The position numbers were made by a program, and so were the translations under genes. DNA of 64,000 bases. Source: Escherichia coli. Lineage in GTDB: Bacteria; Pseudomonadota; Gammaproteobacteria; Enterobacterales; Enterobacteriaceae. Positions 44,173 to 44,716 of the stretch are shown in pieces. Positions within the stretch are counted from its first letter, which is position 1, and each line of letters starts with the position of its first letter. The notes beneath the pieces were generated by a model. That model made no database searches. It was not told the origin of the DNA and saw only the letters and a program-made list of their open reading frames with translations. The stretch lies in NCBI RefSeq assembly GCF_002854065.1, contig NZ_CP024147.1; one strand, 5' to 3'.

Positions 44173-44716
44173 CGGGCCAGCGATCCCCCCAATAAGGCTG
44201 AGGAGTCCCCAGAAAAGAAGACAGGCATAGAGTTTTGTGATCTACTGATTGCGCTAACAAATTCAATGAGATCACCTCTATGCCTGCCCGTTAAGTATGT
44301 CAGGCTTTTTTCCGTAATGCTCTAACTTCCACACATTGGTTTCTGACATCAAATAAGGCTATGACTTTCTCTCCCTTTTAATCTCATTCTGATCTAAAAC
44401 CATATCTTAAAAAAATTAATGGGTATTTTAATTATTCTGATGTTGATCTAAATCACTCAAGGACCATTTTATTACCGATTATCCATTCTATTTAACTATT
44501 GCGACATAAATGTTTGTTTTAGGTGCTGGTGGTAGTTCGTTTTTCTAGCATTCCAGTACGATTTGCTATTAATAATCAGTAGAAAATTCCTAATAATACG
44601 CATAAAAGAGATTAAAGATCGGTAAATTTGATCTATTTCCGATCATTGTTCTATTATTGCGTGTAATGAAATATGGTTTTAAATGAGCGCACAGCGATAA
44701 AACGAGGGATGATGAG

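Follow-up and report, generated by a model that had tools for sequence, protein, structure and literature searches.

At the boundary between a fimbrial operon and tssB, the 64-kb stretch of E. coli DNA analysed here (the window) carries an inverted repeat, and the question is what this repeat does there. A sequence-only reading of the window had offered two answers, the terminator of the fimbrial operon and/or the promoter and silencing region of the T6SS. We arrive at a different one, in which we have good confidence: the repeat is most probably a hairpin of the RNA-OUT or fold-back type that belonged to an IS10-group element and survives in an orphan stub of 151 bp, which abuts the T6SS module at ~44337. 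The features on which this answer is built are listed in Table 1.

Table 1. Features of the fimbrial operon–tssB boundary, in window coordinates.
Feature	Position	Strand	Basis or remark
169-aa gene closing a fimbrial operon of the CS1/Tcf chaperone-usher type; N-terminus resembles a signal peptide	43663-44172	+	ORF
Left-end remnant (IS nt 1-151) of an IS4-family, IS10-group, ISSfl9-like element	44186-44336	+	93-95% identity to annotated copies
Left terminal inverted repeat, 31 nt	44186-44216	+	Alignment to IRL/IRR of the full copy
U-rich tract UCUUCUUUUCU immediately following the hairpin; the antisense RNA probably ends here	44211-44221	-	Fold and sequence
65-nt hairpin	44222-44286		Outer arms 44222-44232 / 44276-44286; inner stem 44237-44243 / 44269-44275
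Putative pIN-like -10, TCTACT, overlapped by GATC 44239-44242; predicted start ~44253 (loop)	44241-44246	+	Positional homology with IS10
Vestigial transposase start: ATG, CCT GCC CGT, TAA	44280-44294	+	Alignment to the annotated CDS of the FDAARGOS_144 copy
Putative pOUT-like extended -10, TGaCATACT; predicted start ~44286-44287, at the hairpin base	44294-44302	-	Inferred
Promoter and leader region native to the T6SS, with 31% GC	44337-44716	+	Conserved across Enterobacterales with the same T6SS subtype
Degenerate copy TTGATCTAAATCAC of the palindrome TTGAT-N4-ATCAA	44443-44456	.	Alignment to related loci
Three GATC (Dam) sites	44617, 44630, 44641 (cluster 44617-44644)	.	-100, -87 and -76 from the tssB ATG
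Predicted sigma-70 promoter of tssB, TTGATC-18-TATTAT, ~60 nt before the ATG	44628-44657	+	Consensus scan
Start of tssB, frameshifted in the G7 run 44782-44788	44717-44815	+	Intact relative has G8

Geometry, Composition and Folding of the Intergenic Region

The stop codon of the preceding 169-aa gene (TAA, 44170-44172) and the tssB ATG at 44717 leave a gap of 544 bp, 44173-44716, which are exactly the limits that the sequence-only reading had given. Within the gap lies a perfect 11-nt inverted repeat, CAGGCATAGAG / CTCTATGCCTG, at 44222-44232 / 44276-44286. Its existence had been recognised correctly, while its 3' limit had been placed at 44295 and in fact falls at 44286. Inside the 11-nt repeat, a second stem of 7 bp is nested (GTGATCT, 44237-44243; AGATCAC, 44269-44275), with one GATC in each inner arm, at 44239 and 44270.

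RNA folding, proposed in the same reading as a check, returned for 44211-44292 a stable structure on both strands: -27.7 kcal/mol on the + strand (z -5.4, with 0 of 200 shuffles as good) and -37.1 kcal/mol on the - strand (z -7.35). A perfect repeat of at least 11 nt appeared in 2.3% of first-order Markov simulations of the 544-bp region; the 11-nt repeat alone is therefore only modestly unusual, and it is homology that decides its nature.

The region had also been described as very AT-rich, with a T-rich stretch following the repeat. GC content amounts to 51% across the whole window, 44% over 44186-44336 and 31% over 44337-44716, so the first description fits the right-hand part of the gap but not the part that bears the repeat. 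As for the second, a T6 run is present at 44307-44312, but instead of adjoining the stem it begins 20 nt past the stem end (44286), and it represents Phe-Phe codons of a vestigial transposase gene. Inspection of the intergenic region for small ORFs gave nothing notable.

An Orphan Left End of an ISSfl9-like Element

A megablast search of 44100-44800 against complete E. coli genomes recovered the whole stretch in only 7 genomes, and about 460 other genomes matched 44183-44336 only. The features under those matches are annotated as "IS4 family" or "IS4-like element ISSfl9 family transposase"; the name ISSfl9-like used here is that of the NCBI annotation pipeline. A full copy in E. coli FDAARGOS_144 (L001:2492-3812) is 1321 bp long, has 31-nt terminal inverted repeats and carries its transposase ATG at nt 95. 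By blastn, window positions 44195-44336 equal nt 10-151 of this copy, at 95% identity.

The stub starts 13 bp past the fimbrial stop codon and has the same orientation as the fimbrial operon and tssB. The core of its terminal repeat, CTGAGGAGTCCCC (motif CTGAGGAATCCCC), resembles the IS10 end CTGATGAATCCCC, and the hairpin occupies nt 37-101 of the element. The transposase ATG (44280-44282) sits within the 3' arm, reading CTCT-ATG-CCTG over 44276-44286. Four codons are followed by a stop, the TAA at 44292-44294, in place of the AAA (Lys5) of intact copies. A 9-nt long-range complement, TTAACGGGC / GCCCGTTAA (44169-44177 / 44286-44294), brackets the 5' region of the IS and is part of the predicted fold; the A-to-T change that makes the transposase stop codon also extends this pairing.

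The DDE transposase gene, the right terminal repeat and a target duplication are all absent, homology ends at 44336, and blastn with the full copy revealed no further piece of the ISSfl9-like element within the 64-kb window, including 44337-44716. Judged by its sequence, 44186-44336 is an IS fragment and no active IS. Megablast gave no second match to the IS end in the nearest genomes, CUWW06 and 100416, and with this single match the stub is an orphan.

E. coli MEW (NZ_CM192120.1, 3126651-3126752) has an unannotated solo stub comprising IS nt 5-106 at 96% identity, in which the terminal repeat and the hairpin are kept. In E. coli GDSC2227PM (L003:5985-6001), an IS1 end adjoins the equivalent of window position 44338, 1-2 bp from the junction between stub and T6SS, which is either a coincidence or a trace of the stub truncation.

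Hairpin Architecture within the ISSfl9-like and IS10 Groups

Intact copies occur in E. coli 95-3322 and in UTI89-type strains. The intact ORF of one such relative (L007) encodes a 399-aa transposase with matches to NCBIfam NF033591 (IS4 family, 339 bits) and Pfam DDE_Tnp_1, and the ISSfl9-like and IS10 transposases share 35% identity (E 7e-69). As comparison elements, we used IS10 (plasmid R100), IS10A and ISEc29. Each of them has an inverted repeat near its left end, as the ISSfl9-like copies do. The transposase ATG lies inside the 3' arm in IS10 and IS10A; in ISEc29, the annotated start is just 5' of the 3' arm, and an in-frame ATG follows 9 nt on, inside the arm. Arm sequences vary by group: ACACATCTTGT… in IS10, GCGCATCTTGTTG in IS10A, ACATTCATGG in ISEc29 and CAGGCATAGAG in the window. 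RNAalifold analysis of six sequences, based on a cross-group MAFFT alignment that is imperfect, kept a basal stem of 10 pairs, 4 of which show compensatory changes, and an invariant GATC; this GATC is shared by IS10, IS10A, ISEc29 and the ISSfl9-like copies alike.

The - strand folds more stably than the + strand in all four elements (-23.9/-18.7, -28.0/-24.1, -27.4/-21.5 and, for the ISSfl9-like hairpin, -37.1/-27.7 kcal/mol), as would be expected if the antisense RNA is the selected molecule. The hairpin of ISEc29 folds no better than its shuffles (z -1.6).

Among 7 ISSfl9-like copies, the hairpin arms are invariant, so that there is no covariation at that level, and the hairpin is the best-conserved part of the element. 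Two ISSfl9-like lineages with 66% identity overall show 88% in the hairpin versus 64% elsewhere, and 82% over the next 39 nt. In one ISSfl9-like copy, an inserted AAAA provides the pairing partner of the TTTT bulge. In the second IS lineage (UTI89-type chromosomal copies, L007:1770-1815 and L008), the terminal repeat itself lies in a hairpin (CCCGCCCATTA…TAATGGGCGGG in L007, CCCGCT…AGCGGG in L008), whose arms appear to differ in a compensatory manner.

We further compared these hairpins with the Rfam model of RNA-OUT, RF00240. The model recognised both positive controls on the - strand, exactly at the hairpin, with 98.8 bits for IS10 and 85.9 bits for IS10A. Even at E <= 10, neither the window nor any copy of the ISSfl9-like element or of ISEc29 was matched, and the gathering threshold (41 bits) was not reached by the window hairpin. 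At permissive thresholds, Rfam returned for the region only chance miRNA-like matches to a generic long hairpin, and no RNA-OUT. Given this silence of RF00240 on the ISSfl9-like hairpin, its equivalence to RNA-OUT rests on position and architecture and not on a model match. By analogy, we file the window hairpin as one that would work like RNA-OUT, outside the Rfam family RF00240. In the same way, we infer that the IS10-type layout, a start codon within an antisense-encoding hairpin, extends to the ISSfl9-like and ISEc29 groups.

Candidate Promoters, Antisense RNA and Proposed Mechanism

The 69-nt RNA-OUT of IS10 pairs through its first 35 nt with the translation start region of RNA-IN and blocks ribosome binding (PMC5006887, PMC4513863). 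RNA-OUT acts in trans (PMC4513863), and a Dam site of IS10 overlaps the pIN -10 (PMC5006887). With regard to IS10 read-through transcripts, PMC13181058, citing Davis et al. 1985, describes their translation signals as sequestered.

Corresponding signals can be predicted in the ISSfl9-like end (Table 1). All 7 IS copies share AAGTATG, in the midst of coding sequence that is otherwise variable. The putative pOUT-like -10 begins 14 nt after the first base of the ATG, and the IS10 pOUT -10, TAAAAT, 15 nt after it, as read from the IS10 sequence. Where the antisense RNA probably ends, UCUUCUUUUCU is replaced by UCUUUUUUU in the L007 lineage. A consensus scanner placed no promoter in the IS end; the same scanner also misses the real pIN and pOUT of IS10, so this negative carries no weight. 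A literature search on ISSfl9 found no paper and no transcript data for the element.

We propose that, on the - strand of an intact element, the hairpin would constitute the stem-loop of a short antisense RNA equivalent to RNA-OUT, which would pair with the 5' end of the transposase mRNA and thereby block ribosome binding. In + strand transcripts arriving from outside, the fold-back would hide the transposase start codon in the 3' arm, and with the start codon buried, neighbouring promoters would be unable to switch on transposition. Through the GATC at the -10 predicted for the transposase, the element would also come under Dam control. In the window, only four codons of the transposase and a stop are left, and the IS end occurs nowhere else in the closest genomes; the hairpin of the window would therefore be a relic without a dedicated present function.

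A Decaying Genomic Island

The 169-aa putative "fimbrial subunit" upstream of the stub has no Pfam or PDB sequence match. Its operon was assigned from the CooC_C usher C-terminus at 41405-42058 and from the TcfC-like usher annotated in the intact relative PapRG-06-5, an E. coli strain in which the order is Tad pilus genes, fimbrial operon, IS stub and full T6SS. In the window, an IS1 copy (40666-41363, - strand) interrupts the CS1/Tcf-type usher, of which the CooC_C C-terminus alone remains. Core genes (tkt, loiP) lie to the left of this IS1, which indicates that it also marks a large deletion or rearrangement.

On the other side of the stub, the frameshifted tssB spans 44717-45213. Its G-run consists of G7 in 100416, G8 (intact) in PapRG-06-5 and G9 in GDSC2227PM, and is shorter or interrupted in other genera; the G7 of the window reflects either a slippage-prone tract or a homopolymer sequencing error. 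After tssB-tssC-tssK, an ORF at 48146-49123 fuses the N-terminus of DotU (TssL; aa 11-93) to a JetD C-terminal domain, and at the same place in strain 100416 adjacent incomplete DotU and JetD fragments are annotated. Past the fusion lie the core genes DUF554 and speC. Overall, the island is decaying, its T6SS is a non-functional stump, and the T6SS module was horizontally acquired. The homologous T6SS cluster of S. arizonae adjoins dnaQ, which we take to be the aspV / SPI-6 position.

The T6SS Upstream Region and Its Predicted Promoter

To the right of the stub, the sequence-only reading stood on firmer ground. Its placement of a T6SS promoter region in the gap is borne out for the right-hand 380 bp (44337-44716), which align with the tssB upstream regions of other genera. 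A TssB search with one genome per species yielded 80 related loci, and motif counts were made over 81 loci. The upstream regions of Salmonella arizonae, Citrobacter amalonaticus, Cedecea, Enterobacter, Kosakonia, Leclercia, Huaxiibacter, a Serratia isolate and others align with the window only from ~44338-44355 to the ATG, at 72-80% identity. The cross-genus alignment starts there, which places the boundary of IS stub and T6SS module at 44337. Neither fimbrial genes nor the IS stub were found beside tssB in the 80 related loci. The region itself is rare in the host species, being present in only 8 of 5426 complete E. coli genomes, and searches for similarity to further T6SS promoters of the species, that of EAEC among them, found none: only the 8 genomes with the same island match, even at E <= 1.

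The best-conserved block extends over 44609-44663. Promoter prediction, which had likewise been suggested as a check, called in this block the sigma-70-like promoter listed in Table 1, from which the tssB transcript is predicted to start at ~44664. Of the 81 loci, 31 have GATCATTnTTCTATTAT at positions -73 to -79 relative to the tssB ATG. In 381 bp there are five GATC sites against 1.1 expected (P = 0.005). Those at -100, -87 and -76 recur across genera, the -76 site being invariant in 13 of 13 aligned sequences. The conservation of GATC around the -35 of a promoter-like block hints at possible Dam sensitivity. At position 44638, in the spacer of the predicted promoter, the window has a T of its own, where 100416, PapRG-06-5, GDSC2227PM and most other genera have G.

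Further upstream, 34 of the 81 loci, from several genera, carry TTGAT-N4-ATCAA with at most one mismatch, at positions -271 to -280 relative to the tssB ATG. This palindrome matches the FNR-type consensus and is a candidate FNR site. It is too distant from the predicted promoter for classical activation, and no second promoter could be placed. The best candidate Fur box in the AT-rich region agreed at 13 of 19 positions (P = 0.27 versus shuffles) and was located off the -10; with this match at chance level, we took the analogy with Fur no further. The low GC content of the region (31%, versus 51% for the window) makes H-NS silencing of 44337-44716 plausible, an assumption drawn from composition and precedent.

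Alternative Explanations of the Repeat

We consider it improbable that the hairpin serves the fimbrial operon as its rho-independent terminator, the role first supposed. The idea is understandable: a stable + strand hairpin (-27.7 kcal/mol) starts 50 nt past the stop codon, the T6 run follows downstream, in a larger fold the region of the stop codon (44169-44177) is paired to 44286-44294, and no other + strand terminator is called before tssB. However, the consensus scan made no + strand call anywhere between the fimbrial gene and tssB, so the hairpin itself is not called either. The + strand has no U-tract next to the stem, the T6 run being 20 nt off and part of the transposase codons, and a 65-nt hairpin with a 25-nt loop region is unlike intrinsic terminators. 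The sequence, moreover, is IS-derived, recurring as part of an IS in ~470 E. coli genomes in unrelated contexts, and the equivalent fold of IS10 acts on translation and not on termination (PMC13181058). The larger fold between 44169-44177 and 44286-44294 makes no terminator. The hairpin may nevertheless cause incidental pausing or stabilise the 3' end of the fimbrial mRNA.

The relic might instead have been put to new use, with an RNA-OUT-like sRNA from the stub acting in trans on incoming ISSfl9-like elements or another target, or with the hairpin insulating the T6SS from fimbrial read-through. The hairpin, the putative TGnCATACT -10 and the U-rich tail are unchanged in all close relatives, another solo stub (IS nt 5-106) exists in E. 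coli MEW, and trans action of RNA-OUT is known from IS10 (PMC4513863). The close strains are >99% identical, however, which makes the conservation of the stub uninformative on selection; the nearest genomes hold no cognate target, and the island is decaying, with IS1 in the usher, a frameshifted tssB and a truncated T6SS. We therefore regard such a use as quite improbable. A combined version, in which the stub would make a ~75-nt RNA-OUT-like sRNA, serving as immunity to ISSfl9-like elements or as a trans regulator, and the hairpin would uncouple the fimbrial operon from a Dam-/FNR-responsive T6SS promoter, is speculative and in our estimate unlikely.

The sequence-only reading had also connected the repeat with the T6SS. 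As an operator or silencing element of the T6SS promoter, it would share the intergenic region with that promoter, as is indeed the case. Yet the homologous loci of more than 12 genera share the region only from ~44338-44355 and do without the repeat, which lies ~340 bp upstream of the conserved promoter block, in DNA of 44% GC, and is IS-derived. This connection does not hold, and such a role is very improbable. Lastly, despite the simulated frequency given above, a chance palindrome in AT-rich DNA is scarcely conceivable in view of the fold z-scores of -5.4 and -7.35, the nested second stem and the 95% identity of the segment to a known IS end.

Significance of the Locus

The regulatory hairpin of an IS10-group element thus remains our preferred reading, and the main value of the analysis is one of correction: a feature that looks like a terminator or an operator is the regulatory hairpin of a dead IS. 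Annotators and predictors of sRNAs or terminators would mislabel an IS-relic hairpin of this type. The finding itself is ordinary, since the hairpin belongs to a known, IS10-type kind of element. As RF00240 misses the ISSfl9-like and ISEc29 groups, the RNA-OUT family of Rfam could be broadened.

Strong conservation of the promoter block marks the T6SS subtype found in Enterobacter, Citrobacter, Kosakonia, S. arizonae and a few E. coli strains, and the fixed-distance GATC trio together with the FNR-type palindrome provides concrete hypotheses on the regulation of this subtype. Because the source strain has only a stump of this T6SS, none of these points bears on its phenotype.

Comparison with Known Systems

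For the T6SS side of the locus, a close parallel is the sci1 promoter of EAEC, a Fur / Dam epigenetic switch (PMC3145626). There, too, the operon begins with tssB and three GATC sites surround a sigma-70 promoter (PMC3145626). In sci1, a Fur box overlaps the -10 and has a GATC inside it, whereas the GATC sites of the window span 28 nt and are located upstream of, in and just after the -35 and not at the -10. The window promoter has no detectable sequence similarity to that of sci1, and its Fur-box matches are at chance. With no alignable E. coli T6SS promoter and with Fur boxes at chance level, the EAEC sci1 switch is an analogy and not a homologue. Salmonella Typhimurium has, in its H-NS-silenced SPI-6 T6SS, another enterobacterial system that was acquired horizontally and is preceded by AT-rich DNA; it differs in that the T6SS of the window is a non-functional stump.

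For the hairpin, IS200 with its art200 RNA offers a similar arrangement, its left end combining a start-hiding mRNA structure with a cis-encoded antisense RNA (PMC4513863). Its transposase, in contrast, belongs to an unrelated family, and IS200 has a separate bidirectional terminator hairpin, to which nothing comparable is evident in the window.

The nearest system is the RNA-IN/RNA-OUT pair of IS10/Tn10. In comparison with IS10, the arm and loop sequences of the ISSfl9-like hairpin are distinct, and RF00240 scores IS10 but not the window hairpin. The end of the ISSfl9-like element reaches 12 nt further out, its stem is longer and stronger (-37 versus -24 kcal/mol) with the U-rich tail directly after it, and the element of the window is a dead stub without a transposase gene. 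What the two have in common is the same IS group, transposases of 35% identity, the end motif CTGAnGAATCCCC, a left-end hairpin of 65-70 nt with the transposase ATG in its 3' arm and a more stable - strand, and an invariant GATC that in the ISSfl9-like copies sits at the position of the Dam site of the IS10 pIN -10.
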